From a virus, in the IMG/VR virus record IMGVR_UViG_3300010157_000040, positions 32,001-96,000 of that record: DNA of 64,000 nucleotides. One strand, written 5' to 3'. The notes below the pieces were generated by a model. It was given only the letters and a program-made list of their open reading frames with translations. It did no database searches and had not been told where the DNA came from. Shown in pieces: positions 36,384-64,000 of this stretch. The position numbers were made by a program, and so were the translations under genes. Positions within the stretch are counted from its first letter, which is position 1. Every line of letters starts with the position of its first letter.

Positions 36384-39300
36384 TGTTGATGCAGGATTTA
36401 ATTCATTAGATCCTTTAGGTCCTGAATATGGTAAAATAAATGCACCTTTATTAGATAGTAAAGGTGTTGCACCTTTTGAAGGTGACAAAATAAAAATGCC
36501 AGAAATTAATTTCCCGGTTACTCCAAGTTTTGGTAGTAGTTTGGATATGCCGCAACATAATGTTAGAACGGCAATTGTAGGTTCACCACCTAATAAACCA
36601 GGTGGTAATAAACCATTTGATTATAATGCTTTTGTTAAAGGTACTAAAGATCAATTAAGAGGTCAACTACAAACTAGTCAAGATAAAAGTTCATATGGTA
36701 AAATATATTCTTATGATGCAGGTCCAGATGGTAATGCATTCTATAAAAGATATCAAGCATATGGTCAAGATACATTTGACAAAATTGGTTTCTCACCATT
36801 AAGAGATAATGAAGCAGTATTTAATTCCCGTACTACTATGTGGGATGACCATAAAAGAATGATGCAACATTCATTCTGGCCATTGTTTGGTAGAGGTTTC
36901 ATTGCTGGTCCACAGAGTTTATGGAAAATGGCACAGGGAGATTTTACTAGTACAGATACTGAAGATGCAAGAGCATATGCAGATGCTGCTGCTATAGGTC
37001 AAACTACCAAAGGTGGTGTAATGGGTTTTACAAACAATATGTTAATGAACTTTGGTTATTCTGCAGGTATTATGTCTGAAGCAATAATAGAAGAAGCAGT
37101 AGGTACATTAGTTGCACCTGAAACATTAGGAGGTAGTTTCTTTCTTACTACTGCAAATGCTGCAAAGAATACCATGAAAGCAATAAAAGGATTAGATATT
37201 GCAGTTGATGGATATAAAGCAGTTAATACAACTTTAAAAGCAGTTGATAATATAAATGATGCAAGAAATTTTTGGAAATCTGCAGCAAATGTTGCTAAGA
37301 TGGATTTTAGTCCAATTAAAAATACAGTAACTGCATTAACAAGTTTAGGTAAAACTGTTGAAAAAGGTGATCAAGTATACAACTTAACTAATTTAGCTAA
37401 GATGTATAAAACTGCTGGTGGTTTTTATAAAGATGTTAGAGGTTTTAATATGGCTTTATCTGAAGCTAGACTTGAAGCAGGAATGGTAGAAAATCAAATT
37501 TATGATAATGGTTACAATGCATATTATAATAAATTTGGTGAAGCACCGGATAATAAAGCACAATATGCTTTACTTAAAGAAGCTAAGAAAGGTTCATTAG
37601 ATACATTGTATTGGAACACGGCATTAATTTATGGATCTAATGCAATTACTTTCCCAAATATTATGGGACCTAAAGGTGGTGTTGCTGGATTTATGAAAAA
37701 TACTATTAAGGAATTTACAGAAGTAGGTGGTGGTAAATTTGGTAATTTGGGTAAAGTTGTTTATGATCAAAGCAAAAAATTATTTGCTTTTAAAAAAAAT
37801 AATCTTATTAACATGGTTAAAGACTATGGAAGACAACCATTATATAAATCAGTTAAAGGTACTGTAGGTTATTTTAAATCAAATTTTACAGAAGGTATTC
37901 AAGAAAGTTTACAGGAAGTTATTTCTGGAGCAAATGAAAAATATTATTCTGATGCATATGATAGAGCAGTAATAAGATCACATGAATATGCTAAAGGTGT
38001 TAGTAGATATAATGTAGAATCACAAGGTGCAAAATCTAAAGGTGAGTATTATAAAGAAGAATTAAAAAATCAAAAAACTGGTCAAGGATTTGAAACTTTT
38101 GCTTCAGGTTTTTTCATGGGTATGTTAGCAACACCACTTAATGCAGCTATACCACATATGTTTGTAGGATACAATAGAGTATTTAATCCAAAAGCATATC
38201 AAGAATTTAAAACAGAAAAATTAAATATTACCAAGAATGTAGTAAATAATCTTAATGCAATTGACATGAAAGATTTTTTAGATTCAAAAATATTTAATTA
38301 TGCAACACAAGATGCAGTTGCAAGTATTAAGAATACTGGTACAAAGAAAGAAGCACATGATGCTGATTTAGATGGTTTCTTATCTCAAATGAATCATGTA
38401 AATCAAATGGGTGCAATGGGTGTATTTAGAGATAAACTAAATGAACTTAAACAACTTACACCTGAAGAGTTTGAAGATAACATTCCTAATATTCCTAAAG
38501 GTGAAGGTGCTAAGTATCAAGCTAAAATAGATGATGTTGTAAAGAAAACTGAAAGAATAGAACAGAGATATAAGTATTATCAAGATAAACATCCTAATCC
38601 AATATCAAATGATAATCTTCCACCAAAAAATACTCCAGAGTATGAAGATGCAGTTTCATTATATCATGCATGGAATAGAGGTGTTGAAAATGCAATTTAT
38701 TTTAATGAAGCATTTGAAGATGGAATGAAAAGAAAAGTAGATATTCAAGGTAGATTTTTAGAACAATCACCATTGAAGTCTATGACACATAGAGATAGTG
38801 AAGTTATATTTCAACCAAAAGAATTAAAAAAAGAAATTGGTTTTCTTAAAAATGAAATTGATACATTAAAAACTTTAAGTGATCCTGAATCAAAACAAGA
38901 GTTAATTTCTAAAGAAAAGAAATTAGCAGCAATGGAAAAATTAGAAAAAGGATCAAGTTCATTTAGTAATTTTTTTAATAGATATCAGAATACTGATCAG
39001 ATTAGAAAAATGTTACAAGAACAAAAAGGTGGTGAAGAAGTAACTGATGAAGAAGTTGAAGCTGTATTAGATAATGTATTAGGAGAATTTTCAGATGATA
39101 ATAAAATAAAAGTAACTTCTGATTATGAATCAGCATTTAAAGGTTATTTAAAAACTACAGCTGAATTAAATGATGATTATTTATTTGATCAAAAAGTAGA
39201 TGAATCATTTGCATTATTAATGGATCATCATAAGTTAGATCATGAATCTAAAGGTTTAATGAAATATATCAATCTATTACATGATCCGGGAGGATTTTTA

Positions 39301-42268: not shown

Positions 42269-45200
42269 ATGAAAATTACTTGTTCTTTAAAGCAGTCTCA
42301 AATTGAGAAACTGTATGCAAATATTTATGGGCACCTATTAGATAGTCAAAATAAAGGAAAAACTTTTGACTCTAAAGGATACATGATAAACTTATTTAAT
42401 AAGATTGCTACAAAAGGTGATGTAGAAACGGCTGCAAAATTTTTACAACAAGTACCTACATTAATTGGTACTGCATCATTTAGACCATCTTTAGAAGAAT
42501 TAGGTTTGCCAACAGATATGTTAAGACCTTTAATTAAAAGTTTTAAGAATGAAGATGCGGGTTTATTAAATGTAGTTAGTTATTTTAATCCTACATTAAA
42601 TATTAATGTACAACAAGAATTAATTGATCAATCAGAAAAGAATGCATTTGTTGTACCAGAAAATGATTCTGAAACTGTTACTAAAGATCTGTTTGATTAT
42701 TTACCCTATGACTCTTTTTCTACTACATTTCAAGAATTCTTAACTGTAGATCCAGATAAAGCTGCAACAAATGAACAACTTGATGTAAATAGAAAAGTTA
42801 TTTATGCAACACTTAAAGAACTTAAAAAAACTATTGGAACTACACCTAATTTAGGTAAACTTGTATATCAAAATGTTACTTTAAAATTAGTACCACAAAG
42901 ACTAGATACTGCTGATACAGATGAGTTAGATAAAACAACAAAAAGATTACAAAATAGATCAGAATTTTTAAATAGAAAAGGTGTAGCTCAACCTAATGTA
43001 ACTAAACCAAATGAAATTTTCTTAATGATAATTTCAAATGAAATAGGTGAACCAGTTTATTTTAATGATGAAGGATCAATTACTACAAAAGAAGAAGGTG
43101 GTAAACAAGTTTATCAATTCTTAAGAGATGCAAGAAAAAAAGGTGATAGATATACAGTAACTGATATTTATGGAAAAGATAATCAGATACTTAATGCAAA
43201 AGAACTTGCAACATTAATGGATAAAAATTCAAAAATTAAATTAAGTAAAGAAGAATTTAATAATTTAGTTGCAGAATTAGATAAAAAACAACAAGAAGAA
43301 TTTAAACAGTTATATAACTTTAGACAACGTTTGATTAAAGGTGAAATACCATTAATTAATATAACAGATGTAAGTCAAGGTATAAAAGAATATACCAATA
43401 AAGAAATTACATTAAGTAATATAAGAAGATATCCGTTTGGTACAGATCATGTATTTAAAACAATACAAACTATTAAGACTCCAAGAGGTCAGTTTAAAAA
43501 AGGTGAAGCAACAATTACTATAGAGGGTCAAGAATTTAAAATTGATAGACCAAACTTGACAGATGATTTAATTAAAAAAATTGCAACAGTATTAACTGAT
43601 AAAAATTTAAGTAAAGAACTAAGATATAGATTTTATTCACAATTTTTAGCAAATAAAGCATCTCTTGCAACAAGAAAACATACTTTATCTTATACTCCTG
43701 TTACAGATGAATTGATTTTTTCTTATTCAAAAAAAACATTTCAAGAAGGATACGATAGTAAGTTTACTGATGTTATGTTAGATAGTGATACAGCATACAC
43801 AGAAATATATGATGCATTAAAATTAGCTTCAGGTAAAAATGGTAATTACTTTTCTGCTAAAATGACTTATAATAAAGACTTGTTAAACATTAATGGTTAT
43901 CAAGATTATAATTTAGATACAAAAGAATTATCAGAAGATTTTATTCCTTATATTCCATTGCTTGAAACTCTTCCTAATACAAAGGTAGATGCTAGTGTAA
44001 CTAGTAATCCAAGATTTTTTAATTCATATATGAAGTTTGCACTTCCAAATGAGTTTACACAACAATTAGAAGAAGCACAAAACAGTTCAAATGATGCAGA
44101 AAAAGATGATTTCTTTGAAACTTTATCCGCACCTTCTGATGTAGAAAATTTAATGCCCAGTGAAAAGAAAAAAGTTATTGTTGATACACTTAAGTCTGAT
44201 AAGAAAATAGTAGGAACAATTACTAAACCTTTTGGTTCAGATACTAAATGGAAATTTATTACTGCAAAAGGAACAACAATAGATTTTTATTCTCATACAA
44301 ATAATATTACTGATTTAGATACAGTTGCTCAAGCTAATTTAAACTTACTTCCAGAAGTTGACTTTAATGGAAAAGTAATGACAGATGTTGTTGAGGTTAG
44401 AATAGGAGATAAAGTAATTGGTTATGTAAGAGAAACAGATGACTTTGATAAAGTAAATATTGTTGAACCAACAAAGTCTCAAGAAGAAATTGATGCAGAA
44501 ATAGAAGAAAAAATTAATCCTAAAAACACAAGTCATCCATCTGAAGATAGTTTATTTTTTACTAGGTCGGGTGATTTAACTAATAATGTAACAGAATCTG
44601 AAATTAAAGATGCTCATACATGGTGGGCTAAGTCAGATTTAACTAAACATATTGGTTTTAAAGAAGCAGTAAACATAGTTAATTCTGATGCATATGCAAG
44701 ATTTATGACTTATGGTGCTAGACTTAACGGTACATTAGGTACTATAGAAATTGCAAATAAAGGTTCTATGGTTGATGTTTATCATGAAGCATGGCACGGA
44801 TTTTCACAATTGTATTTAACTAGAAAACAAAAAACCTCTTTATACAAAGAAGTAAGAAGAAAATTAGGAAGAAATAAAAAATTATCATTCTTTGAAATAG
44901 AAGAAATAATTGCTGAAGAATTTAGAGAGTATGCAAAAAATCCTAAACCTAAACCTGATTCACCAGTAAGAAATACTATATTTAGAATAATATTAAACTT
45001 TTTAAGAGAAGTTTTTGGAAAAGGTAGTGTTACAAATGTTAGAGATATTAAAAAAGTTCAAGAATTATTTGATAATTTATATTTAAACAAAAATCTTAAT
45101 AAGTATACTCCTACTATTGATAATGTAATGTTTGATTTATTATATAGAAATAGTGGTATTGTTAAACCAGGAACATTAACTGATCAAGTACTAGATAGAC

Positions 45201-48200
45201 AAGATTCTAATCTAATTAAAGATAGTATGGATTCAATAATTTCTGATTTGGTTGATTCTGATAATGGTATCAAAGGAAATAAATCAGGAACTTTGGCTAT
45301 ACTGCTAGATAGTAGAAATAGAGATGAGTTATATAAACTAATTAATATTAATTTAAATAAATCTTTAAGTCATTATAAATCTACATTAGAAAAACTTGAT
45401 GATAAAGATGAAAATAAAAATACTAAAGAAGTTTTAGAAAATAGAGTAAGAATACTTCAAGCAGCTGTAGATAATTATGGAAATTCAAAAAGTGGTGTTA
45501 TACAATATCATATAGAAAATAGTACATTTGATTTAATTAAACAAAAATATACAACTCTTGAATTAGATGAAGAAGGTAATTTGTTTGATCCAAATAATAC
45601 TGACAATACAGAAAGATATGGTGATACTAAAGTTGGAGAAAAGTCTTTAATTCAGTTAGCTGGAAAAGAAACACTTTATATTCTTAAAAGTTTACATGAA
45701 GTTGTTGATGGTAAAATAAAGTATAATGAATTAGGTTATAAAAAATTAGCTCCTTTTAGAACTACCTGGAATAATACTGTAAGAGCAATCAGTGGTCTAC
45801 AAGATCCACAAGAAATGTATGATAAATTAGTTGAAGAAAGCAAAGTCAGTCCTGAGTTTAAACAGTTGACAGAAAATAAATTAGCTAATCCGTTAAATTC
45901 TAAAAATCCAAATGAACAAAAAGCAATAACTTCATTTTGGCAAGATTTTAACAAACCAAGAGTTCCATATATTCAGTTTACAATTTTTAAAAAGACAGAT
46001 GAAAATCCAAAGGGATCTTCTGAAGTTACTGAAGCATCAATTGAAACTAAAACTGTTATAAATAAATTTCAAAATAAATTTAAAGCAGATATTAATAGTG
46101 TATATATTAAAAGAATAGGTAAAGAAAACATTCCAACACTTGACATATCTGAGATAGTAAAAGATTTTTCTGATGCAAATGGTAATTTAGATATATCAAA
46201 ATCCTATGAGTTTGCAAGAGCTATTGGTTTTTATTTAGATGACATAGGTATAATCAAAAATACATTAAAGAAAGATGAATCTACCATACAACAGTTTGGT
46301 TTACCATACATCTTTAATGCTGTTAAAGTACTTAACCGTAAAGATAAACTACCAGTAAAGAGTGCTTTAGTAAGTAAATGGATTAGTAAATTTAAAACTA
46401 ATCCAATTAAAACATTAACAGAGGCTATACCTGTAGGTGTTATTGGTCCTGATATATTTAAACAAAAAAATAAGGTAGAAGCATTAGCAAGACTACAAGG
46501 AAGATATGGTGTTGACTCATCTAATTTTGGTGTATTTAATGCTGAAAGAAACTTAGTATTTGAACACATAGACAATAACAGTATTACTAAGATAGTTTAT
46601 GCATTAAACAATGCTGAAAAATTATCAGATCTTTGGGAATCAGATAAATTTAATTATACTAAGTTTTTAGACCCAAAAATAAATAGTTTTACAAATAGAT
46701 CTGGTATACTAAGATCATTATTTGACATGAGAGATCCAAAGAAATCTAAATTAAAAGATAGAGATCTTGAATTATTTATGAATTCTGGTACACAAGTAGA
46801 ACAATCTGCAGTAGGTTTAAATACTACATCTTTAGATGTTAATAGTAAAATGCTTCAGGAAATGAATACAATGCTTAAAGGTGGTGTTCAAGAATTTATG
46901 AGACATGCATCTAAGTCATCTTCATTTGGAGCAAGAATTAATGGAGGTATAGTTGGTAAACCTGGTAAACAAGGTAGTGATGAAAGGTTATGGGTAGATA
47001 TAGATATGTTTGCAAAAAATATAGCACATGACTATGCATTTACAGCACATCTTTTACCATACATGGAATCTGAAGCAGAAAGAATATTTAAGTGTAATAG
47101 TAATCTTGATACATTTAAAAATTATGTAGGTTATAATAGAGAACTTAGTAATGGTAGAATTGCTGGTCAAGAGTTTACTGCATTTGATAATGTATTAACT
47201 GATAATACTAAAGAACTTATTTATGCTGCAATTAATAAAGCAATAAAAAATAAAGAGTTGTTTAATCTTGGAACTTTTTTAAAAAATAATCCAACTTTAT
47301 TATCTACAGTTAAAAAAGAAACTGCCTTTTATTTTGCAGATCAAACTCGTGAAAATTTATATAAGTTAACAACAAGTAATTATATCAGTCCTAGTCTTAG
47401 AGAAAAATTAAATGTGTTTAATATTACTGAAGATGCACAAGATAAAGTTTTAGTTGATGCTTATACATATAATGCATGGATTCATAATTTTGAAACAGCA
47501 AGTTTATTTTATGGTGACATTGTACAATACAATCATGATAAAGAGGAGATGCATAAAAGAAATACTGGAGCAACTTCTGGTGGTAGAACTTTTAGAACTG
47601 ATATATCTGCACAAAACTTTGCAAATGGATATTTAGCTGATACATCATATGCAAAAAAACATAATGCCACTCCTATTAGTTATAATGGTACTTTTAATAC
47701 TGCTATCATAAAAGATATTGAAAGAACTTCTATATACTATCCAGATTTTGAAAAAGCATTAAGAGAAGATTATACTAAAAGATTTTCTAAAGTACTTGAT
47801 AAAAGTAAAGTAGCTGCAGCTGTAGAAGATAGAGTTGCAAAAGAAATTAAGAAGTATAAAGATATGGAAGAAGGTGATGGTCAAGGTTGGATCACATTTG
47901 ATGCATATAGATTATTAAAAACAAATGAAAATAGTTGGTCTAATGCACAAGAAGTATTGTTCCAAAAAATAAATAACAATCAACCAATAGAAGCAACAGA
48001 AATAACTGAAATGTTTCCTGTTTATAAATTGCAAAACTTTGGTCACTTAGCAAATACAGATTTGTTAGCACCAATAAATGCAATGCATAAATTTGCACTT
48101 ATGCCACTTATTCCTAGTATGATAGAAGGTACTGATTTAGAATCTTTACATCAACAAATGATGTCTAAGAACATTCAGTATTTAACATTTCAAACTGGTT

Positions 48201-51200
48201 CTAAAGTAGGTAGTGTAACTTCTAATGGTAAAGCAGATCAAATATATGATGCTAACTCTGACGAAAAGATTTTAAAAACAGATATTAAATTTACTCCAAA
48301 TACTATTTATGTTGATTATTTAAAAAATGTAACTGCTGTTCCATCTAAATTTAAAAACAAAACAGTTTTTTCAACACAGTTGAGAAAATTAATTCTTAGT
48401 AATTTATATGAAAATGGTAAAATCATTAATTCTGATAATACAAAAGCAATAAAAGAATATGAAGCTGCAGTAGATCATCATAGTAATTTATTAAAATTAG
48501 AATTACTTAATGAAATAGGATACGAGCATGATGTAAAGAATAATAAATATTATGGTAATGTAGATAAATTTTTAGATGTGGTTCAAGCTGAACTTGAAAA
48601 AAGAGATTTACCAGAACATTTAATTCAAATGGTTGGTCTTACTAGAGACAAGTCTTTAAGAACAGATTTATCATTACATTTAAAAGCAGATGAGATAGAA
48701 AAAATTCTTGTTGCTTTAGTTGAAAAAAGATTAATTAAACAAAAAGTTAAAGGTGAAGCATTAGTTCAGGTATCCAGTGCAATGACTAATGGTATATGGG
48801 ATCAAAAAACTAAATTTAAAAATGCTACAGTAGCTGATGTTAAAAAATTCATGGGTAGTAATAACTTACCTTTCTATCATCAAGATGCATCTGGTAATAC
48901 ATTAGCTATGAAAGTTGCTATTGCTTTACAAGGTGACTTTGTTAACTTACTTAAACTTAATCATTTAGATGGTCAACCTATAGGTACAAGAGCTAGATTA
49001 AATGATATGATTAAAGAAGACAAGTGGTTAGACTTAAATGATAATAGAAAGTCTGTTACTTTATCTGCTGTAAGAATACCAGTACAAGGATTAAACTCTA
49101 TGGAGTTTATGGAAGTATATGAATTTTTAGATCCAGCTGCAGGAAATATTATTATTCCTCCATCTGAAATTGTTGCTAAATCAGGAGCTGACTTTGATGT
49201 TGATAAGTTAACTACATTTATGCCACACATAGATTACAAAGGTAATTATGTGAAAGGTCAATTAAGTAATGAGGAGTTACTTAAAAAAGTTAATAAACTT
49301 AATGAAACTCCAGAAGGTAAAAAACTTGCAACTAATTTAATTAAGTCTCAAAAATCCGCATCTGAAAATAATTTAATAGCAACAATCAGAGGTATACTTG
49401 AACTAAAAGATAATTTTGCTAGTTTAATTAGACCAAATGATACATATTTATTAAAAGAAATAGCCGATGAGTTACAAGATCATGTAACAGATTACAATAG
49501 ATTTGGAAATGTACATAATGAAAATAGAACAGGACTTAAAAATCAAAAAGTTATTAGTCCTACTAGAGTATTAGAAGCAGGTTATAATTTACATAAACAT
49601 GAAGCCAACATGGTTGGTAAGAGAGTGTTAGGTATTATTGCTGTAGAAAATGCATTACATCCTATCTTTAATGCTATTGGTGCAGCAATGCCTAAAACAT
49701 ATAAAGAGTCAAGTTATGTAGGTAACAAGTATATTGATGGTAAAATTGACTATGATACTAGAATACTACTACCTACAAATATGACAAAGGATGGTAGAAT
49801 TTCATTGTCTGGAACTGAAACTTCTGATGGTATGGATAACATAGGAGAATTATTTTCTCAAATGTTAAATGGTGCTGTGGATGTTGAAAAAGATGCATGG
49901 ATATTCTTTATTCAAGGTAACTATGAATTAATTCCAATGCTTACATTTTTGTTTAAAGCAGGTGTACCTAAAGAACAAGCAATTATGTTTGTATCACAAC
50001 CACTTGTTAGAGAATATGCAAAACAACAAAGAGAAGTAAAGAGTGCATATGCTACACTTACTGGTGTTGTACCTGAAGATTATAATCCAATGTTTGCTAA
50101 ATATACAGCAGCACAAAATACATTAGAAGGTAAGAATCTTAACAGTGTAATTAATAAAGCTACTGCATTAAAAGTTAAAGATGTTTTAAGTTTACAAGGT
50201 GATACAGAAATAAAGTTTGCAGAAAATAAAGTATATAAAACTAAAAAAGCAAGTACTATACTAAAAGAAATTAAAGATGGTACTATAGATCCAACAAAAA
50301 TTACCTATATGGTAAATAATGAAACTGGTGAAAAAATATTCAAACCAATTGGAAAACATCCTGTATCTAATGCAAACTTTTATTATACAGCTAAAGCAGC
50401 AACAGAAAATAAAAAAGAATTTTCATTAGAAGAATTAAAGCAAAATGTAGTTGATAATGATAGTACTTCACCACAAGCAATTGCAGCTTTCTTACATTTA
50501 TTAGAAATTGAAAAGTCATCAAAAGGATTCAGTGTATTAAAAATGCAAGCAAATCCGGATACTAAAACATCTAAGACAATTCAAGAAATAATTAAAAGAA
50601 ACTTATCACTTGAAGATATTAAAGAATTATCAAAATTAGAACCAGGATTAGTAGACAAATTACAAAAGTCAATACTAGGTACTTTCTTTGATAACAAACT
50701 AATTAAAGATTTAGTAGTACCAGTATTCCAATTAAGAAATAATGATGTTGTTACTTCAACTATTTTAAAATTACTAGATAAAAACTCAAATTCAATAGCA
50801 GAAAAGTTTGGTAAAGGTCAAGATGGTGCTAGTCAGTTTATTACACAGTTTAAAAATGCAATTCCTAATTACATTTATCAAAACTATATGTCTCACTTTA
50901 TTGATAAAGCAGGTAATTTAACTGATACTCCAACTGAATTTAATGAACTTACCGTAAAAAATGTAGCGGGAACTACTAATGGAGCAAAAGTAGTAGGTAA
51001 TAATATATATGTAGATACGGAAAGACTAAGAAATGAATTTGAAAATAAACTGTACACAAGAGAAAGTACACTTGAAGGTAACTATAAAGAATCTGGATTA
51101 AGAGGATTTAAACTTCAAGATGATATGTTCCCTAACTTATCTTCTTATGTAAGATATGTATATGAAAGAGAATATCAAAGACATTTATATCCAATTGATT

Positions 51201-53092
51201 CTTTAAAAACTAATAAAGATTATTTAAAGTTTAAATCAGATTTTAAATCTGCAGGTGTAGATGAAAGTAAATTAACTGATGTAGCATATGAAGCATATCT
51301 AAATCAAAGAGCATTAATAAATGCATTTAATAGAGAAGCAATTATGGGTATGGAAGATTATTCATATACTGATATGGTTTTAAATATGGTAGAAGAATTT
51401 TCTAACTTAAAACATAAGTATCCAATTGTTAATCAATTCACTAAACCTAAAGTTGTTACAAGAAATATACACGGTCAGGTACTTAAAGAAAATTATGTTT
51501 TAACATTAAATGATGTTAAAGAATTAAAAGATGGTCAACTTGCAGAAGTATATTACCAAAATATAAAAGATCTTGGAGATGAAACTGTAAAGAAAGTATC
51601 TAATATAGAAGATAATAAAAGAATTAGTAAATTATTTAGTCTGTTGCCTATGATGATGATATATCAACATGGTTTAGGATATAGTAAATATGGATTTAAT
51701 GAAGCATTACCATATAATGATTTTATAGGTGTAATGCAAACAGCAGCAGATATTTATGAAGATAAAATTCTTAATGAACAATCTTTATATTCTATTTATA
51801 ATTTACTAATGAATGAGAATAATGCAAACTTTAAAGATTATGTTGCACCAAGAGCTAAAGATTATAAAAATCCAGTTGCTAGTGAATTCTCAAATCCTGT
51901 AGTAACAACTGTTGAAGAATTAGATGATAGCATGAGAGCATTATTAATGAAAAATGCTGTTCCTGTAGTACAACCATCTACTAATGTTGAATATAATTAT
52001 AATCCATCAAATGTATCTGAGCAAACAAGAGATGATTATAAACAATATGTATTAAAACAACTTGGAAAACCTGAAATTAAAGCTAAAGCAAATGCATTTG
52101 ATTTTATATATCCAGATTTAACAATTACAATATCTAAAGATGGTTCTCTTAGTTACACAAATGTTAATCAAAAAATTGTAGATTTATCTAAAACAGATTC
52201 TGGATATGATCTTAAATTTATGGTTGGTTTAAATAAATTAGCTGAAGAGTTTACTCAACCATCTGCTAGTGTTGAAACAGAAGTAGTAATTCCAGGTGTT
52301 GAAATTAAAAGAAATGTTATAACTAAAGAAGAACAACTTGAGTTATTTAATATTCTTAAACCTTATATTGAAAAACAAGGAGCCACAACCAATAAAGCTA
52401 CTAGTGCAAATGTAATGATTGGATTAGGTTTAAGATGGGATTATAAATCAAATAATCCTAATTATAAAGCTATTGAAATAAAAAATATTATTGTACCTGG
52501 AAGTAGTGCTAAGTATGGTTATTATGAAGTATCTATTAATGGTCAACCATTAGGTCCTATTAATCCTAGAATTAAAACATTAATGTCTAAAGCTACTGGT
52601 ATAGATGCTACTGATTATGATGGGGCTATAATAAATCTTTATACAGATAAAACTTTTATAAGTGCTCATAATGATGTAGATGAAGCTGCTGATGCTATTG
52701 GATATCCTGTACTTGTTTTAAATATAGGTGGAAGTGGCAATTTTAGTGTACAACAAACTGGAAAATATGAACCTACTCCTCTTAATTCTGGAGACTCATA
52801 TATTTTTGGAATAAATGGAGAAAACAGAAAAGTAATGCATAGAACTTTTCCTTCTAAACAAGATGGATTTTTACCTGCAATAACTACAGCAATAGATGGA
52901 GAAACTTATTCAAAAGGAAGTTATAGATTATCTATTACTTTAAGAAGAGTAAAAAATCTAAAACCAGGAATGCCTACAGTACCAGCTAAAGTTGTTACTC
53001 AACCATCTACTAGTGAACCTACAGATATAGTTAAAACAATTAGTCCTAATGGTAAACCACCAATTGAAAGAACATCATCAGATTGTGAATAA
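42269..53092 (+). CDS. Virion-packaged single-chain RNA polymerase (crAss-type) with zincin and C-terminal AlkB domains
   Basis: 3607 aa. RIPVQG…GADFDVDKL catalytic DxDxD (49190-49204), EEGDGQG, HEAWH (44783-44797), and AlkB HND…H…RLSITLR. Confidence 0.9.
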   Translation: MKITCSLKQSQIEKLYANIYGHLLDSQNKGKTFDSKGYMINLFNKIATKGDVETAAKFLQQVPTLIGTASFRPSLEELGLPTDMLRPLIKSFKNEDAGLLNVVSYFNPTLNINVQQELIDQSEKNAFVVPENDSETVTKDLFDYLPYDSFSTTFQEFLTVDPDKAATNEQLDVNRKVIYATLKELKKTIGTTPNLGKLVYQNVTLKLVPQRLDTADTDELDKTTKRLQNRSEFLNRKGVAQPNVTKPNEIFLMIISNEIGEPVYFNDEGSITTKEEGGKQVYQFLRDARKKGDRYTVTDIYGKDNQILNAKELATLMDKNSKIKLSKEEFNNLVAELDKKQQEEFKQLYNFRQRLIKGEIPLINITDVSQGIKEYTNKEITLSNIRRYPFGTDHVFKTIQTIKTPRGQFKKGEATITIEGQEFKIDRPNLTDDLIKKIATVLTDKNLSKELRYRFYSQFLANKASLATRKHTLSYTPVTDELIFSYSKKTFQEGYDSKFTDVMLDSDTAYTEIYDALKLASGKNGNYFSAKMTYNKDLLNINGYQDYNLDTKELSEDFIPYIPLLETLPNTKVDASVTSNPRFFNSYMKFALPNEFTQQLEEAQNSSNDAEKDDFFETLSAPSDVENLMPSEKKKVIVDTLKSDKKIVGTITKPFGSDTKWKFITAKGTTIDFYSHTNNITDLDTVAQANLNLLPEVDFNGKVMTDVVEVRIGDKVIGYVRETDDFDKVNIVEPTKSQEEIDAEIEEKINPKNTSHPSEDSLFFTRSGDLTNNVTESEIKDAHTWWAKSDLTKHIGFKEAVNIVNSDAYARFMTYGARLNGTLGTIEIANKGSMVDVYHEAWHGFSQLYLTRKQKTSLYKEVRRKLGRNKKLSFFEIEEIIAEEFREYAKNPKPKPDSPVRNTIFRIILNFLREVFGKGSVTNVRDIKKVQELFDNLYLNKNLNKYTPTIDNVMFDLLYRNSGIVKPGTLTDQVLDRQDSNLIKDSMDSIISDLVDSDNGIKGNKSGTLAILLDSRNRDELYKLININLNKSLSHYKSTLEKLDDKDENKNTKEVLENRVRILQAAVDNYGNSKSGVIQYHIENSTFDLIKQKYTTLELDEEGNLFDPNNTDNTERYGDTKVGEKSLIQLAGKETLYILKSLHEVVDGKIKYNELGYKKLAPFRTTWNNTVRAISGLQDPQEMYDKLVEESKVSPEFKQLTENKLANPLNSKNPNEQKAITSFWQDFNKPRVPYIQFTIFKKTDENPKGSSEVTEASIETKTVINKFQNKFKADINSVYIKRIGKENIPTLDISEIVKDFSDANGNLDISKSYEFARAIGFYLDDIGIIKNTLKKDESTIQQFGLPYIFNAVKVLNRKDKLPVKSALVSKWISKFKTNPIKTLTEAIPVGVIGPDIFKQKNKVEALARLQGRYGVDSSNFGVFNAERNLVFEHIDNNSITKIVYALNNAEKLSDLWESDKFNYTKFLDPKINSFTNRSGILRSLFDMRDPKKSKLKDRDLELFMNSGTQVEQSAVGLNTTSLDVNSKMLQEMNTMLKGGVQEFMRHASKSSSFGARINGGIVGKPGKQGSDERLWVDIDMFAKNIAHDYAFTAHLLPYMESEAERIFKCNSNLDTFKNYVGYNRELSNGRIAGQEFTAFDNVLTDNTKELIYAAINKAIKNKELFNLGTFLKNNPTLLSTVKKETAFYFADQTRENLYKLTTSNYISPSLREKLNVFNITEDAQDKVLVDAYTYNAWIHNFETASLFYGDIVQYNHDKEEMHKRNTGATSGGRTFRTDISAQNFANGYLADTSYAKKHNATPISYNGTFNTAIIKDIERTSIYYPDFEKALREDYTKRFSKVLDKSKVAAAVEDRVAKEIKKYKDMEEGDGQGWITFDAYRLLKTNENSWSNAQEVLFQKINNNQPIEATEITEMFPVYKLQNFGHLANTDLLAPINAMHKFALMPLIPSMIEGTDLESLHQQMMSKNIQYLTFQTGSKVGSVTSNGKADQIYDANSDEKILKTDIKFTPNTIYVDYLKNVTAVPSKFKNKTVFSTQLRKLILSNLYENGKIINSDNTKAIKEYEAAVDHHSNLLKLELLNEIGYEHDVKNNKYYGNVDKFLDVVQAELEKRDLPEHLIQMVGLTRDKSLRTDLSLHLKADEIEKILVALVEKRLIKQKVKGEALVQVSSAMTNGIWDQKTKFKNATVADVKKFMGSNNLPFYHQDASGNTLAMKVAIALQGDFVNLLKLNHLDGQPIGTRARLNDMIKEDKWLDLNDNRKSVTLSAVRIPVQGLNSMEFMEVYEFLDPAAGNIIIPPSEIVAKSGADFDVDKLTTFMPHIDYKGNYVKGQLSNEELLKKVNKLNETPEGKKLATNLIKSQKSASENNLIATIRGILELKDNFASLIRPNDTYLLKEIADELQDHVTDYNRFGNVHNENRTGLKNQKVISPTRVLEAGYNLHKHEANMVGKRVLGIIAVENALHPIFNAIGAAMPKTYKESSYVGNKYIDGKIDYDTRILLPTNMTKDGRISLSGTETSDGMDNIGELFSQMLNGAVDVEKDAWIFFIQGNYELIPMLTFLFKAGVPKEQAIMFVSQPLVREYAKQQREVKSAYATLTGVVPEDYNPMFAKYTAAQNTLEGKNLNSVINKATALKVKDVLSLQGDTEIKFAENKVYKTKKASTILKEIKDGTIDPTKITYMVNNETGEKIFKPIGKHPVSNANFYYTAKAATENKKEFSLEELKQNVVDNDSTSPQAIAAFLHLLEIEKSSKGFSVLKMQANPDTKTSKTIQEIIKRNLSLEDIKELSKLEPGLVDKLQKSILGTFFDNKLIKDLVVPVFQLRNNDVVTSTILKLLDKNSNSIAEKFGKGQDGASQFITQFKNAIPNYIYQNYMSHFIDKAGNLTDTPTEFNELTVKNVAGTTNGAKVVGNNIYVDTERLRNEFENKLYTRESTLEGNYKESGLRGFKLQDDMFPNLSSYVRYVYEREYQRHLYPIDSLKTNKDYLKFKSDFKSAGVDESKLTDVAYEAYLNQRALINAFNREAIMGMEDYSYTDMVLNMVEEFSNLKHKYPIVNQFTKPKVVTRNIHGQVLKENYVLTLNDVKELKDGQLAEVYYQNIKDLGDETVKKVSNIEDNKRISKLFSLLPMMMIYQHGLGYSKYGFNEALPYNDFIGVMQTAADIYEDKILNEQSLYSIYNLLMNENNANFKDYVAPRAKDYKNPVASEFSNPVVTTVEELDDSMRALLMKNAVPVVQPSTNVEYNYNPSNVSEQTRDDYKQYVLKQLGKPEIKAKANAFDFIYPDLTITISKDGSLSYTNVNQKIVDLSKTDSGYDLKFMVGLNKLAEEFTQPSASVETEVVIPGVEIKRNVITKEEQLELFNILKPYIEKQGATTNKATSANVMIGLGLRWDYKSNNPNYKAIEIKNIIVPGSSAKYGYYEVSINGQPLGPINPRIKTLMSKATGIDATDYDGAIINLYTDKTFISAHNDVDEAADAIGYPVLVLNIGGSGNFSVQQTGKYEPTPLNSGDSYIFGINGENRKVMHRTFPSKQDGFLPAITTAIDGETYSKGSYRLSITLRRVKNLKPGMPTVPAKVVTQPSTSEPTDIVKTISPNGKPPIERTSSDCE
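51968..53017 (+). repeat. Three in-frame ~21-24 bp direct repeats encoding (T/V)QPS(T/A)(S/N)
   Basis: 51968 GTACAACCATCTACTAATGTTGAA; 52253 ACTCAACCATCTGCTAGTGTTGAA; 52997 ACTCAACCATCTACTAGTGAA. Confidence 0.85.
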
Positions 53093-53123: not shown

Positions 53124-56100
53124 ATGCCTTGTCCTATTAAAATAAAAGAATTTTTAACTAATCAAGTTTTTGAAAAAGGTCAAGCAGGTCTTTTTATGAG
53201 AAAAGAACTTGCTGATAAATTAGCTGCAGATATTAATGCTGAGTATGATGCTAAAGTTATAAAATTTACTAAGTACTTTGATCACTTAGAAAGAGAAATT
53301 ACTATTCCTCAATCTTTAATTGATGAGTATTATGATGCAGAACTTCAAGAAGAAATTAAAGAAATGAAATCTGCAGAAAGAGAAGCAGAAGAACAACAAC
53401 TACAAGAAGATATAAGAGCAGGTAAAGTATTAGTAGAAAATCTTGATGTAGATACAGATAATAATGATTATAACTTTAATGAAAACTTTACTGAAGACTA
53501 TTACAAAACTAAAGTAATAGAAAATAGAGACTTACAAATTGCTCAAAAACTTGGTGAAAAATATGCTAAAGCATTTAATGTTTCATATTCTATAATTACA
53601 CCAGGAGAAGCAGCAATCTTATTAGAAGATAGTCCAACACCATTTACATCTGATGTATCTTCATTTTTTTATGATAATGCTATTTACTTTATAGAAGGTA
53701 AATTTACTGCAGCATCTGTATTACATGAATTTGCTCACCCATTAGTTAAAGGTATAGCATTTCAAAATCCAAAGTTATTTCAAAATTTGTTTTCACAGCT
53801 CACTAGTACTAATACTGGAATTGATGCATTAACAAAAGTAAAAGATAAGTATCCGGAACTTGATGAGGATTCAGATAGATTTAAAGAAGAAGCAATTGTT
53901 ACAGCCATGGAAATGGATGCTGCAATGGAAATTGAAAATGTTAAAAATAATGACAGTGCATTTGCTAAGTTTATACAAAACTTAATTTTTGCAATTAAAA
54001 AAGTTATTAAAGCTTTAACAGGAAATATTAATCTTAAAAACTTATCTACATCAACTACCAGAGATGAGTTAGTTAATATGATGCTTAATGAAGATTTTCA
54101 AATAGAAGATTTAAAATATCAGTTATCATTATTTGCTGAATTTAAAAAAGATACGGAAGATTATATTAAAGAACTTAAAGATACTACACCTAAAAAATTA
54201 GTTGAAGCAATTAATAAGTTTCATAATGAAATGACTTTCCAAATTGGTGTACTTAAAAATTCTCCTAAAAAACTTAGAGAAGAACTAAAAGGAAAAGAAG
54301 GATTAGATGTATTACGTAATATAAAAGATTATGTAAAAGGTTATAAAACTGCAGGAGAAGATTTAACTGAAGAAGAATTAGAAGAATTATTTAAAAATTT
54401 AGGTGAAGAACAAGATGACTTAAGAGTACGTTCACTTGCATTTATAAATAGTTTAACTGAGTTAGAAGTTTTTGCAAGAAGAGTACAAACTTTACTATCT
54501 GATATGAGAAAGTCAGATAAGTTTATGACTTATGATGGTAATGGTAAAATTCAATATTTTAAACAATTCATGGAGAGAGAAGTAAAATTCTTGAATGAAG
54601 TAAGAAGATCACTTGCATTAGATCCTTCTAATGAATTAGTTAAAAAAATATTAGCAATTAAAGCAGTTGTTGAAGATAATGTTGAAAATGCTAAAGAAAT
54701 GACATTTGAATTTGTTAAAGGGTTTTTTATGGAAAACAGTATAACAATGCAAAAAAATGTTAAAGAAAAATTAGAAGAAACAATTGATAGAGTTTTAAAA
54801 GCTGAAAAATTTACCCAGGATGACATTGATGTATTTAAAGATGATTTATTTAATAAGTTAGATATAGATAATATTAAAGGAATAAAACAATCAGATTTTT
54901 TATTACCAAGTATTCCTAAAGGAGCAAAATATATTTTATCAGAAATTGGTAATTATAATTCAAACAAAATTACTGAAGAAACAGTAGATAATTATTTAAG
55001 AGGTCATGTAAGAGATTTAGGTATGATGGGATCACTTGCAACTCCTATGGGTAATGTTAATGATATGTTTGGATCTTTTGTAAATTTTATGAAATCTAAA
55101 TTATCAAATGCTGAAGTTAAAAGTTTAGATAAACAATATAAGATAGCTGAAGAATTACAACCTTATTTAAATGCTGTTGGAATAAATCATAATGATACTA
55201 AAGCTATTGCAGATTTAGTATTATTTATTGATACTGTACCAGATACAGATGAACATGGAAATTTTATTGAAAAACAAATCTATGCATATCTTGATAAATT
55301 TCAAAACTGGAGAGCAGATAGAGGTAAGTTAGAATTTGATTTAGAAAAAGCTAGAACTTTAGGAAAGAAAGATGAAATAAAAGCAGCTATGCAAGCTCGG
55401 TGGGAGTTTGATGAAAAATACATGCAACGGAAGTATGTAGATGCTGTTTATGATGTTAAAAAGATGTGGAGACAAGATAATGTTTTATTAAATCCTGCAA
55501 CAGGAAAAGAAATAAAAATATCTGCAAGTACTTCTATTGAAGCATATATGGAAAGACAATCTGCATTAGATGATTTGGCAACATTTAATAGTTCAAACTT
55601 TACTGAATTAGATGATCTTAATGAATTTACTCCTTCAAAAGCTGCTAAAATTAAATATGATGAATTGTTTAACATGTTTAATTTAAACGGTGAATATAAA
55701 CAAGGTAAAGAATTAGAAAAAGTATTAATAAGAAGAGCATACAGAGAACAGTCTAGAAAATTTAATGAGAGCACTACTAATATTGATAAAGTACAAAAAG
55801 ATTTAGATCATTTTGTTAATGTAACTTTAGCTGGTATGGGTATAACTAAAGATTCTGATTCTGCAAAATATGAATCTGAGATTGCTAAGTTTACTAGTAA
55901 AAACTTTAAGATAGCATATACTAATGAATACTTTCAAGAAAGAAATGCAACATTAGATGCTATTAAAAAAATAAATGAAAAAACAAAAGGGTCAGATATT
56001 TCTAAACAGTTAGCTAATTTATATGAACAAAGATATAATTTAGTAAATAGAGTAACTGATAAAGATGGAGAACCTAATGGTTTAATGTTAGGTCAAGATC

Positions 56101-58994
56101 AAATCAAAAGACTTAAAAGTATTGAAGAAGAAATTGTTGCAGCACAAGAACAGTTTGATAGAAAAACTGGTTTATCTAAAGAAGATTCAAATAGATTAAA
56201 ATACTTTGAAGAAGAAATAATTGGTAAAGGTAAGTTTAATGAAATGACACCTGAAGATAAAGCTGAATATCAAAATCTATCTAACAATAGAACAGCATTT
56301 GGTTTGTCTGGTCAAGAAACAACTTATTTAAGAGGTTTATATAGAAAACTTAATGAACTTACTGATACACAAGCAACTGATTATTATATCACTGCATTTA
56401 ATAATGCATTAGGTGATGCTGATGTTCCAATTGCAACAATAGAAACTGCTGATAACTGGATTAATTCAAATGATGTAATGAAAGCAAAAGCTGAAAGTTC
56501 TGCATTTGCTGAATGGTTTGATAGAAATCATTATACTAGACCAAGTTTTGATCAAGAAACCGGAGAGTACATGAATAAGTACTATAGGTTAAAAGCATGG
56601 ACTATAAGTAAACCAAGTGATTCTTCATTTTATAAAAAAACAGAATTAGTTGATCCTACTACTGGTGATAAACTTACAGTAGATGGAGTTCCTATTGCTA
56701 AATATTCATATACTAAAATTAAAGATGAATTTTTTACAGGATATGATGCAAAGACTAAAACTATTAATAAAAAAGTAGGAGTGCATGTAGATAACAGAGG
56801 TAACTTTTTACCTAAGACATTTGCTATTGGAGATGTGAATGATAAATACATGAATAAAAAATATTTTGAACTTCAAAAAGCAAACAATGCACAATATAAA
56901 TTACTTGAAAAATTAAAACAAAATATATTAGATGTACAAGAAGATTCACAATTTGCATCAAGAATGTATTTAGATTTTGCTAGATTTAGAATTGATACTA
57001 ATCTTGAATATTTACAAAAAGGTAAGCTTCAAGAAAGTATAAAAGATAAGAAAAATATTGTATTACAAAATCTAAAGGCTGCTGTTACTGCAGCTAAAGA
57101 TGACCCGGAAAGAAGTTTGAATTTTGATAATAAATATTTATTAGTTCCAACAGACTTACAAGGTAAACCAATTGCTAAAGTTCCTATTAGAGGATTATTT
57201 AATTTAGATATTAATACTGTTTCTACAGATGTGTTTAGATCAATGTTTAATTATATGTATTCAATTGATCAACAAAATGCATTAATAGAAAATGAACCAT
57301 TAGCACAAGCACTACTTAATGTATATAGAGATCCAGATAATGCAATTGATAAATTAGATAGAGCAAGTAAAACTCTTGCAAAAATAGATGATAAAGCATC
57401 TTCTTTCTTAAAAAGATCTACTAATAAAAGATTACAGTTAGCTGAAGATTTTATTAACAGAACTTTTTATGGTCAAATTACTAGTGAATTTCAACAAGAA
57501 AATGTAATGACAACTAAAATTGCAAAAGGTTTAGTTGGTCAAGCAAGTAGAGCATTTTATGCATTAAACTTACAATCCTCAGTAAAAAATAAATGGGGAA
57601 TGACAGTGCAGAAACTTATATATTCTGCAGGTGGAAAATATATTGACTATCCTTCAATGGCAAGAGGTCAAATATCTGCAACAAAAGCAATGTTTGAATA
57701 TGCTGCTAAAGGTGCATATGCAAAAGGAATGAAAAGTTTACCAATGCAAATGATGGATAAGTTTGATATGAATCCAGGAAAAACTAAATCTGAGTTTGGT
57801 AAATCTACTACAAGAACAGCTGTAAAAGATTTATTAGATGGTGCATGGATGTATTCTGATAGAAAATTATTAGAACTAGAAGGAGCATTAGAACTTGGAT
57901 TTGCAGTTATGGAAAAACAACTTGTTGATCAAGTACAAGATGATGGTTCAGTAACACAAATAAGATATGCAGATGCATTTGAAACTAATGCAGAAGGTAA
58001 AATGGTGTTAAAGAAAGGTATTGATCCTGAATGGGGAACAGAAGAACTTACTCATACTGTACAAGTAGGGGACACATTAGATTCTATTGCTAAGAAATAC
58101 CATATGACAGCAGAAGAATTAAAATCAAAAAATAAAATTACAGAACTTCCGGAACTAGGTGAAGATATAACAATTTCAACAAATAAGAAATTTAATGATG
58201 TTAAACTAATCATAGCATCAGTAAATAAAAAACTGAATGGTACAATGACCAACATTGATGGACCAGCAGCTGAAAAGTATTTGTTATATAATCTATTTAG
58301 TTTTTCAAGAAAATATGCCACAGGTATGTTCTTGCAAAGATTTCAAATGGATACTTCTAAAGGTAATAAAGGTAATGAAACATGGGATTGGGACACTAAT
58401 GATACAACTAAAGGAACATACATAGAATTCTTACAACTATCAGGTAAATTAATTAAAGGTTTTAGTACATACTGGCCAATTATGAAACCTTCAGAAAAAG
58501 CTGCTGCTAAACAAGTAATTATGGAAGGTATGTTATTATTTCTTATAGGAATGGTAATAACTTATTTATTTGGTTATGATCAAGGTGATGAAGATAGATT
58601 TGCTAAAATTAAAGCACGTGAAGATAAATATGGTGCTGCAGGATTTATGGCAAACCATTTATTATATCAGTTAATGATGGTAAAGAAAGAAAATCAATCT
58701 TTTATTCCACTTCCTGGAGTAGGTTTAAATGATTGGTTAAGTTTTGGTAAAGCAACTACAATTGTAATAGGTCCAACATTAGGTGTATATGGAAAAATAT
58801 TTGTTGATCTTGGTCAAATCTTAATTGGTAGTGATAAAGCTACATATAAACAAGATGTTGGTCCATATTCATGGCAAAAACAAGATGTATATAAGATTTG
58901 GAATCACATAGGTTCATTATTTGGTGTATCAGGTAAGAATGTTAGTCCTTATTGGTCTATCAAGAAGAAAGAGATATTTGAAAACATGAATTAA
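53124..58994 (+). CDS. Giant cargo protein with zincin motif, LysM domain and C-terminal hydrophobic helices
   Basis: 1956 aa. HEFAH (53724-53738); LysM HTVQVGDTLDSIAKKY…LGEDITI (~58050-58176); hydrophobic MLLFLIGMVITYLF. Confidence 0.75.
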   Translation: MPCPIKIKEFLTNQVFEKGQAGLFMRKELADKLAADINAEYDAKVIKFTKYFDHLEREITIPQSLIDEYYDAELQEEIKEMKSAEREAEEQQLQEDIRAGKVLVENLDVDTDNNDYNFNENFTEDYYKTKVIENRDLQIAQKLGEKYAKAFNVSYSIITPGEAAILLEDSPTPFTSDVSSFFYDNAIYFIEGKFTAASVLHEFAHPLVKGIAFQNPKLFQNLFSQLTSTNTGIDALTKVKDKYPELDEDSDRFKEEAIVTAMEMDAAMEIENVKNNDSAFAKFIQNLIFAIKKVIKALTGNINLKNLSTSTTRDELVNMMLNEDFQIEDLKYQLSLFAEFKKDTEDYIKELKDTTPKKLVEAINKFHNEMTFQIGVLKNSPKKLREELKGKEGLDVLRNIKDYVKGYKTAGEDLTEEELEELFKNLGEEQDDLRVRSLAFINSLTELEVFARRVQTLLSDMRKSDKFMTYDGNGKIQYFKQFMEREVKFLNEVRRSLALDPSNELVKKILAIKAVVEDNVENAKEMTFEFVKGFFMENSITMQKNVKEKLEETIDRVLKAEKFTQDDIDVFKDDLFNKLDIDNIKGIKQSDFLLPSIPKGAKYILSEIGNYNSNKITEETVDNYLRGHVRDLGMMGSLATPMGNVNDMFGSFVNFMKSKLSNAEVKSLDKQYKIAEELQPYLNAVGINHNDTKAIADLVLFIDTVPDTDEHGNFIEKQIYAYLDKFQNWRADRGKLEFDLEKARTLGKKDEIKAAMQARWEFDEKYMQRKYVDAVYDVKKMWRQDNVLLNPATGKEIKISASTSIEAYMERQSALDDLATFNSSNFTELDDLNEFTPSKAAKIKYDELFNMFNLNGEYKQGKELEKVLIRRAYREQSRKFNESTTNIDKVQKDLDHFVNVTLAGMGITKDSDSAKYESEIAKFTSKNFKIAYTNEYFQERNATLDAIKKINEKTKGSDISKQLANLYEQRYNLVNRVTDKDGEPNGLMLGQDQIKRLKSIEEEIVAAQEQFDRKTGLSKEDSNRLKYFEEEIIGKGKFNEMTPEDKAEYQNLSNNRTAFGLSGQETTYLRGLYRKLNELTDTQATDYYITAFNNALGDADVPIATIETADNWINSNDVMKAKAESSAFAEWFDRNHYTRPSFDQETGEYMNKYYRLKAWTISKPSDSSFYKKTELVDPTTGDKLTVDGVPIAKYSYTKIKDEFFTGYDAKTKTINKKVGVHVDNRGNFLPKTFAIGDVNDKYMNKKYFELQKANNAQYKLLEKLKQNILDVQEDSQFASRMYLDFARFRIDTNLEYLQKGKLQESIKDKKNIVLQNLKAAVTAAKDDPERSLNFDNKYLLVPTDLQGKPIAKVPIRGLFNLDINTVSTDVFRSMFNYMYSIDQQNALIENEPLAQALLNVYRDPDNAIDKLDRASKTLAKIDDKASSFLKRSTNKRLQLAEDFINRTFYGQITSEFQQENVMTTKIAKGLVGQASRAFYALNLQSSVKNKWGMTVQKLIYSAGGKYIDYPSMARGQISATKAMFEYAAKGAYAKGMKSLPMQMMDKFDMNPGKTKSEFGKSTTRTAVKDLLDGAWMYSDRKLLELEGALELGFAVMEKQLVDQVQDDGSVTQIRYADAFETNAEGKMVLKKGIDPEWGTEELTHTVQVGDTLDSIAKKYHMTAEELKSKNKITELPELGEDITISTNKKFNDVKLIIASVNKKLNGTMTNIDGPAAEKYLLYNLFSFSRKYATGMFLQRFQMDTSKGNKGNETWDWDTNDTTKGTYIEFLQLSGKLIKGFSTYWPIMKPSEKAAAKQVIMEGMLLFLIGMVITYLFGYDQGDEDRFAKIKAREDKYGAAGFMANHLLYQLMMVKKENQSFIPLPGVGLNDWLSFGKATTIVIGPTLGVYGKIFVDLGQILIGSDKATYKQDVGPYSWQKQDVYKIWNHIGSLFGVSGKNVSPYWSIKKKEIFENMN

Positions 58995-63242: not shown

Positions 63243-64000
63243 TTACAATTTTACATTACCAATAGCTAGTTCATATGGAAGTGTGTAATCTTTGTTTAAA
63301 TAGTGATAACTTATTGTATCTTCTATATTTTCAAAATCAAAACCCCATATCTCTAGACTTTCTTTAGAGACTTGGAATGGGTATACTTGGTTGTATTTAT
63401 CTATTACAATAAATGTTACAACTATATCCCAATCTATAGCATCTGGTAAATCTTTGATAAACTTTACATATGCCATCTTTTTATACATAGTGGCTTGAAT
63501 CCAATATTTATAATATTTAACAGCATCAGGAAAATCTATTAAATTTTTACCTGTGGTTTTAAGGTCATTAATAAATATTGTTTTAGATTCTCTATCTATC
63601 ACAACATTATCAAGAAATCCTTTATAACCAAATGGAAGATTTTCAATATCAACTTGTAATGGCAACTCATTATAAACTGATAAATGTTTATCTTCTGCAG
63701 TCATGTCAAGTTGTAGTAATGCTCTAACTGATGTATCCATCTTTAAAACTTCAACACTTTCCTTGCAACCACTCAAGGTGTCTTGATCTACTACAGTCTT
63801 TCCTTGACTGTTTTTAAGAAAACTAAAATAGTCTTTGTGGTCCTCTGTCAGAATTTTTGCAAGTCTTTGCTCATCTGTTTTTAAGGATTGATGTAAGTTA
63901 ACTGTAAGTAGATGTGTAAGTATTTCTTGAGAGTAGTCCTCCAAAGATAGTGTATCATTTTGTAATGTGCAATGATATTTAAAAATATTATGCAACAATT
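63243..64000 (-). CDS. PD-(D/E)XK (RecB/Cas4-like) exonuclease, 5'-truncated
   Basis: NEL…YKGFLDNVVID…INDLKTT…YKYWIQATMY. The frame runs off the window end. Confidence 0.85.
   Translation of the reverse strand, partial: LLHNIFKYHCTLQNDTLSLEDYSQEILTHLLTVNLHQSLKTDEQRLAKILTEDHKDYFSFLKNSQGKTVVDQDTLSGCKESVEVLKMDTSVRALLQLDMTAEDKHLSVYNELPLQVDIENLPFGYKGFLDNVVIDRESKTIFINDLKTTGKNLIDFPDAVKYYKYWIQATMYKKMAYVKFIKDLPDAIDWDIVVTFIVIDKYNQVYPFQVSKESLEIWGFDFENIEDTISYHYLNKDYTLPYELAIGNVKL

Follow-up and report, generated by a model that had tools for sequence, protein, structure and literature searches.

Background

Polyvalent proteins, the virion RNA polymerases (RNAPs) of crAss-like phages, phage modular evolution and exchange at conserved motifs (PMC3150448) have all been described. 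Here we analysed a stretch of 64,000 nucleotides (the window), bases 32001-96000 of an IMG/VR virus record of 108,697 bp and 29.6 % G+C (coded G000), in which a giant open reading frame (ORF), P0001 (42269..53092, + strand, 3607 amino acids (aa)), appears from its sequence to encode a crAss-like virion RNAP with the architecture of a polyvalent protein. Near its 3′ end the gene is divided into domain cassettes by three in-frame copies of a short DNA string, referred to here as the joint or linker, which recurs in the giant protein genes of other uncultured phages. Literature searches for its peptide, TQPSTSV, and for the theme as a whole found no description.

P0001 resembles the polyvalent proteins (PMC5512222) in being a giant protein of the virion module with many enzymatic domains on one chain, and in its virion RNAP, HExxH motif, nucleic-acid-modifying enzymes and variable content; "recombinational variability" was raised there as a possibility, by analogy with polymorphic toxins. 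It differs in that the text on polyvalent proteins is without AlkB, linkers or shuffling, that the RNAP examples given are N4-like rather than crAss-like, and that no conserved DNA junction is described. The RNAP gp66 of Cellulophaga phage phi14:2, which we take to be ~2180 aa long, has the DFDxD motif in common with P0001, is homologous to it (E 7e-19) and occupies a similar place among the giant virion proteins of a ~100-kb crAss-like genome. Its description (10.1101/2020.03.07.982082) includes no C-terminal cassette array, whereas P0001 consists of a 3233-aa core followed by a variable array, and the two share ~24 % identity.

In polymorphic toxin loci (CdiA VENN, the Rhs core motif and orphan C-terminal (CT) modules; PMC3150448) a short motif likewise borders a constant region and interchangeable C-terminal domains, which are thought to be swapped by recombination. 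Those motifs are defined as peptides, and immunity genes and silent orphan cassettes are found at the loci, whereas proteins of the present system contain several joints each and conservation is at the level of the nucleotides, the likeness being functional only. No immunity genes or orphan cassettes were seen here: all 75 distinct copies of the joint described below lie inside long ORFs and, in the short loci examined, none heads a short ORF.

Tail-fibre genes of T-even phages, as Tetart et al. are said to have found in 1998, recombine at conserved motifs (His boxes and glycine-rich motifs), and the boundary sequences of lambdoid phages are short conserved stretches that serve as crossover points in the swapping of modules. 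What is exchanged in those cases are host-range adhesins or whole genes, with related flanks, whereas one 21-mer here joins at least 32 unrelated enzymatic domains, in carriers whose cores are as low as 23 % identical. The attC cassettes of integrons and the R64 shufflon (sfx repeats, Rci) are alike in that short repeats bound cassettes, and the shufflon also alters the C-terminus of a protein. Both however need a tyrosine recombinase (no match in the six genomes searched, see below), symmetric or inverted sites and programmed variation within one genome, whereas the joints here are direct and asymmetric. Set beside these systems the present one is a sharper case, in which one nucleotide-fixed in-frame adaptor, common to phages with polymerases of ~25 % identity, stands beside at least 32 unrelated domain families.

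Three in-frame joints delimit domain cassettes at the C-terminus of P0001

The family consensus of the joint is ACTCAACCATCTACTAGTGTT, 21 nt encoding TQPSTSV, and the array in P0001 runs in the order core, joint, 87-aa domain, joint, AlkB, joint, conserved tail. Copy 1 (GTACAACCATCTACTAATGTTGAA, VQPSTNVE; 51968..51991, + strand) is decayed and departs from the family consensus at 4 of 24 positions, copy 2 (ACTCAACCATCTGCTAGTGTTGAA, TQPSASVE; 52253..52276, + strand) has one change from consensus, and copy 3 (ACTCAACCATCTACTAGTGAA, TQPSTSE, that is TQPSTS-E; 52997..53017, + strand) has lost the GTT codon. The original prediction, made from the letters of the window by themselves, had described three near-identical repeats in one frame. 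Their frame, which is that of ORF 42269..53092 throughout, and the distances of 285 bp and 744 bp between their starts are as predicted, whereas "near-identical" proved too strong for copies of which one is off consensus at four positions and another is a codon short. Copies 1 and 2 share a longest perfect run of ~9-10 nt.

A 16-nt core, CAACCATCTRCTARTG, has three matches in the window against 0.22 expected, a number reached in none of 100 shuffles. All three are on one strand; the rest of the 108,697-bp genome, searched on both strands, holds no further match to the core, and the linker peptide motif was found in no other ORF of the genome. In the AlphaFold2 (AF2) model the linkers lie within, or at the edge of, stretches with a predicted local distance difference test (pLDDT) score below 50, between folded parts. 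All three joints in the window have begun to decay, and the array is a product of the exchange process proposed below.

The first cassette, framed by copies 1 and 2, encodes an 87-aa domain (YNYNPSNV...GLNKLAEEF; 51992..52252, + strand; 95 aa if one linker is counted) that has no family in Pfam or the ESM Atlas and was modelled by AF2 with moderate confidence. It recurs between linker-like segments in four other proteins, at other positions and in other architectures, and the linkers that flank it are decayed in several of them. The second cassette (52277..52996, + strand, 240 aa) is an AlkB-type dioxygenase domain dependent on 2-oxoglutarate and Fe(II), matched by Pfam PF13532 at aa 3344-3559 (E 6.5e-12), the AF2 model of which compares with E. 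coli AlkB at a TMt of 0.78-0.80 in Foldseek. The iron and 2-oxoglutarate ligands HxD...H and R-x5-R are present, residues H257, D259, H314, R343 and R349 being nearly invariant in the alignment (A3). Judged by sequence and model, copies 2 and 3 bracket an intact AlkB-type dioxygenase domain, so that the repeats enclose both the unassigned domain and the complete AlkB domain that had been expected between them. Copy 3 is followed by a conserved C-terminal tail (...PPIERTSSDCE) and the stop codon (53018..53092, + strand), and a tail of the form PEGLPGI.RTS..C[QKES] closes most of 74 orthologues whichever cassettes come before it.

Domain content of relatives changes at the joints

In the 74 orthologues of the core, all relatives being metagenome-assembled contigs, the stretch past the last core motif spans from ~120 to more than 900 aa, and many have TQPSTSV or TQSSTSV between its parts. 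P0005 (3264 aa) is 94.6 % identical to P0001 over aa 1-3241 and then passes from one QPSTSVE directly into the last 25 residues, which are 100 % identical to the tail of P0001; the 343 aa that separate copies 1 and 3 in P0001 are absent, leaving an empty site. The AlkB cassette is closely matched in two contigs, L005 and L006, to which window positions 52244-53015 are 96.9 % and 94.4 % identical at the DNA level while the cores are only 69-77 % identical. In the alignments the homology starts at the first base of copy 2 for both contigs and stops inside copy 3, where the high identity to L005 gives out; the flanks are unrelated. The AlkB cassette was acquired or passed on recently.

Across contigs, 24 of the 32 internal ends of blocks that are at least 88 % identical between different contigs fall within 10 bp of a joint, as do just 0.7 % of positions. 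Pairs of contigs assembled from separate samples (L031/L032, L069/L102, L114/L124 and L131/L144) have the same junctions, matching at 100 %, and the frame and the order of core, cassettes and tail are kept throughout the relatives. The central proposal of the original prediction, that the repeats are recombination junctions for the addition, removal or swapping of accessory domains, is borne out by the empty site of P0005, by the mosaic with L005 and L006 and by the block ends at joints; domain content among the 74 orthologues and in P0005 varies precisely at the repeats, as it had anticipated for close relatives.

The C-terminal region, queried as DNA and as protein against GenBank phages, gave no match. 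A scan of metagenome contigs with the end of the core gave no relative, and the same query against viral contigs gave one locus.

A distant clade of AlkB-carrying contigs (L014-L017 and L024, at about positions 2900-3715) has blocks of 88-96 % identity that are limited to AlkB and end at degenerate linkers of the forms PTQM.G.PKG and STQ. When this clade was examined for a DNA adaptor of its own none was found, only degenerate TQ-rich linkers.

The joint in other phages

The exact 21-mer is present in 44 IMG/VR contigs, and a one-base allele in which CCA has become TCA (Pro to Ser, TQSSTSV) in 23 further contigs, with up to five exact copies per gene; in one contig (L285:6565-8952) five exact copies of the TCA allele lie within one gene. 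In 596 Gb of bacterial and archaeal genomes the exact 21-mer had no match. We collected 75 distinct copies, every one in frame, with 48 unrelated sequence clusters upstream of them and 32 unrelated clusters downstream; the eighth codon is AAA in 31, GAA in 24 and AAT in 8. Five other genomes scanned whole have 2-4 copies each, in a single gene and on the coding strand.

The carriers are for the most part orthologues of the RNAP, with 23-70 % aa identity to P0001. In L069 and L102 the cassette array is N-terminal on the RNAP; in some N-terminal arrays four joints stand 447-480 bp apart. L071 and L138 carry the 21-mer in homologues of the neighbouring 1965-aa and 1956-aa giant proteins, and the joint is therefore not confined to the RNAP gene. 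Pfam domains (AlkB, DUF7831, NADAR and cpYpsA) begin 10-25 aa past a joint, and the orthologue arrays also hold PIF1-like helicase domains; PF18760 is a further domain added in orthologues. The search of viromes that had been suggested for the 21-mer thus finds it again at junctions of unrelated domains.

Conservation of nucleotides rather than of the peptide

With the pooled codon usage of the carrier genes, the probability of the exact 21-mer given the peptide TQPSTSV is 0.0045 per copy. Among the matches listed from a scan in which third positions were left free, ~35 copies were exact, against four, in long AT-rich ORFs, that differed by one or two synonymous changes. The other family of serine codons, which codon usage should favour, appeared in a long AT-rich ORF in one unrelated case among the 110 matches listed. 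Identity at synonymous sites is thus far above what codon bias would lead one to expect, the concern attached to the original prediction.

The variant copies that do occur mostly change amino acids (TQSSTSV, AQPSTSV, IQPSTSV, TQPSTGV and TQPSASV). A tally of codon changes with both alleles as references gave ~10 synonymous and ~38 non-synonymous changes, compared with a ratio of ~27:73 that, by our own estimate, is expected under random single-base change. Because synonymous sites are fixed while the variants that occur are mostly non-synonymous, it is the nucleotides and not the peptide that are conserved, as read from these sequences. Low divergence together with a neutral pattern of change is what repeated recombinational copying predicts, and not what selection on the peptide predicts.

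How cassettes may be exchanged

Because one DNA string flanks unrelated cassettes in many phages, the joint gives genes that are diverged elsewhere a brief stretch over which their DNA matches perfectly. We consider homology-guided exchange at this 21-nt stretch, by annealing or by template switching, to be the best reading and a probable one. The in-frame joint separates cassettes, each a domain complete in itself, on giant virion proteins in a group of uncultured crAss-like phages. With crossovers at two joints an entire domain would pass from one co-infecting genome to another, a crossover between two joints of one gene would delete the domains in between, and the reading frame would be preserved in every such exchange. 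The phage's own ExoVIII-like nuclease and Sak4-like annealase might carry it out, or it might proceed by template switching. Repeated exchange would re-copy the joint, keeping its codons fixed while its amino acids were free to vary, and joints beside old cassettes would decay; that joints decay once exchange stops is suggested by the degenerate linkers of the distant AlkB relatives and by the decayed linkers around the 87-aa domain. We infer this enzymology, and likewise that cassettes are delivered into the host and there serve in counter-defence or repair.

The recombination module with the ExoVIII-like nuclease and the Sak4-like annealase lies at 63243-64000 of the window (running on to G000 96262) and at G000 103618-104340 (L146:9619-10341). 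A Sak4-like annealase was found in three of five other carriers checked, both complete genomes among them, with 84-86 % identity in two and 55 % in the third. At 84-86 % the annealase is much better conserved among carriers than is the RNAP core. Parts of the literature (PMC5928155, PMC5499656, PMC8093625) give Sak4 a single-strand annealing activity and describe phage annealases that recombine short or diverged substrates and yield mosaics.

An integron- or shufflon-like system, which the original prediction had favoured, is not supported. Tyrosine recombinases (Phage_integrase, PF00589) had no match in G000 or in five other carriers (G001-G005, two of them complete), with positive controls, and serine recombinases (Resolvase) had none in G000; across the six whole-genome scans every copy is a direct repeat, oriented with the coding strand. 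Copies 1 and 2 do have the inverted arms TCAAC...GTTGA noted in the prediction, but the arms do not characterise the family: this sole symmetry needs GAA as the eighth codon, which 24 of the 75 copies have against 31 with AAA, and most copies have lost the right arm GTTGA. The arms were rejected as a hairpin or recombinase site since they are not conserved. With genes for an ExoVIII-like nuclease and a Sak4-like annealase in the phage, and no match to tyrosine or serine recombinases in G000, homology-guided exchange is favoured.

Several points weigh against homology-guided exchange at the joint. A length of 21 bp is at the low end of the homology that known recombinases use efficiently, and the copies in the window are diverged, to the point that this genome can probably no longer use them efficiently for exchange. 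The more distant AlkB relatives have degenerate TQ-rich linkers without a common DNA string, yet still show cassette-limited identity. No recombination event was directly observed, exchange being read from sequence comparison, and the empty-site variant P0005 is known here as a protein only. Constant re-copying may be the reason why the joint resists decay across cores of ~25 % identity.

The 21-mer could otherwise be the recognition site of a dedicated enzyme, either a site-specific recombinase or a nuclease whose break triggers homing-like copying of cassettes. Such an enzyme would fit the extreme conservation of the string with its sharp 21-nt boundary, the direct copies that flank cassettes and the existence of an empty site, and the replication module contains an HNH-family gene (395 aa, phrog_1314, E 3e-66; G000 98817-100004, L146:4818-6005, minus strand) that is a candidate only. 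The Phage_integrase search of G000 and the five carriers and the Resolvase search of G000 speak against it, as do the absence of a conserved dyad symmetry and the orientation of the copies, which are direct and never inverted, and we regard it as unlikely. There is an outside chance that the 21-mer is more than passive homology and serves an active system, encoded by the phage, as its dedicated site. By a nuclease-triggered and annealase-completed copying process, for example, that system would deliberately reshuffle in-frame cassettes among co-infecting phages; if so, it would be an "integron for protein domains" acting on an ejected toolkit. Quite improbable is a function of the repeats as peptide only, be it as a flexible inter-domain linker or as a cleavage site that releases domains (for instance for the protein's own HExxH zincin-like domain), with the identity of the DNA incidental. 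The joints do lie in or edge predicted disordered stretches between folded domains, a HEAWH motif is present in the same protein, and Iyer et al. 2017 (PMC5512222) proposed that polyvalent proteins are processed autoproteolytically by the zincin-like peptidases they contain. Against this, codons are fixed far beyond codon bias while amino acids vary freely, the ends of homology blocks at joints are left unexplained, and the peptide is in no other ORF of the genome, on which ground a general maturation-protease site was also not favoured. A peptide role as linker or zincin cleavage site may well coexist with the role of the DNA, but explains neither the fixed codons nor the breakpoints.

The remaining alternatives concern how the repeats arose. 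An origin as scars of local tandem duplication or slippage in this gene, with no part in exchange between phages, would fit the regular spacing of the copies in some relatives, 447-480 bp apart in G004. The domains they bracket in the window are however unrelated (the 87-aa domain without family and AlkB), the same string adjoins 32 unrelated downstream families in other phages, and the cassette-limited identity with L005 and L006, which starts and ends at joints, contradicts such an origin; we hold it to be highly improbable. Every relative being a metagenome-assembled contig, the mosaic might also be an artefact of assembly, in which a short repeat common to different phages led to their being joined. 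A repeat of 21-24 nt is shorter than reads and than commonly used final k-mers, which counts against this, and the frame and the order of core, cassettes and tail are kept. Assembly chimeras were rejected, the same junctions recurring at 100 % identity in independent samples, and an artefact of this kind is scarcely credible.

Under homology-guided exchange the joint looks like a natural adaptor for reshuffling a kit of enzymes that is probably injected. This offers a testable mechanism for the rapid re-equipping of phages with enzymes that probably enter the cell with the DNA (AlkB, NADAR, SLOG, helicases and others). The joint also flags domain boundaries across thousands of unannotated residues of giant proteins, giving a route to excise and test candidate counter-defence domains, and it provides a natural precedent for short-homology, frame-preserving assembly of domains.

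The giant protein and its genomic neighbourhood

Residues 1601-2800 of P0001 match the "Catalytic RNA polymerase subunit" g066 of Cellulophaga phage phi14:2 (tblastn, E 7e-19), the RNAP subunit of crAss002 (E 7e-12) and many uncultured crAss-like phages, the identity to g066 and to the crAss002 subunit being only ~23-24 %. The sequence motif DFDVD (aa 2308-2312; 49190..49204, + strand) is of the catalytic DFDxD type that is the stated hallmark of crAss-like virion RNAPs (bioRxiv 10.1101/2020.03.07.982082). The P0001 gene stands with those of a major head protein and a tail fibre protein and with further giant ORFs, after which the replication module follows on the opposite strand. The assignment as a crAss-like virion RNAP is supported by this motif, the homology to phi14:2 g066 and crAss002 and the neighbourhood of virion genes. 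By analogy with its homologue gp66, and from its position among head, tail and giant-protein genes, P0001 would be carried inside the virion and delivered to the host by ejection.

As in polyvalent proteins, an RNAP core, an AlkB domain and a domain without family stand on one chain in a virion context. A zincin-type HExxH motif, HEAWH (aa 839-843; 44783..44797, + strand), is a sequence motif only, without a Pfam or PHROG match. P0001 has no family in PHROGs, and phmmer against PDB sequences gave no match.

The gene next after P0001 encodes the 1956-aa virion protein. One of the flanking giant ORFs (36370-42267) has an exonuclease-like stretch (phrog_298) and the other (53124-58994) a LysM/endolysin-like stretch (phrog_1274, phrog_14642). 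The 3607 aa of P0001 include only three cysteines, at aa 5, 1609 and 3606, and the one near the end of the protein lies in the C-terminal tail that is kept in most of the 74 orthologues regardless of the preceding cassettes.

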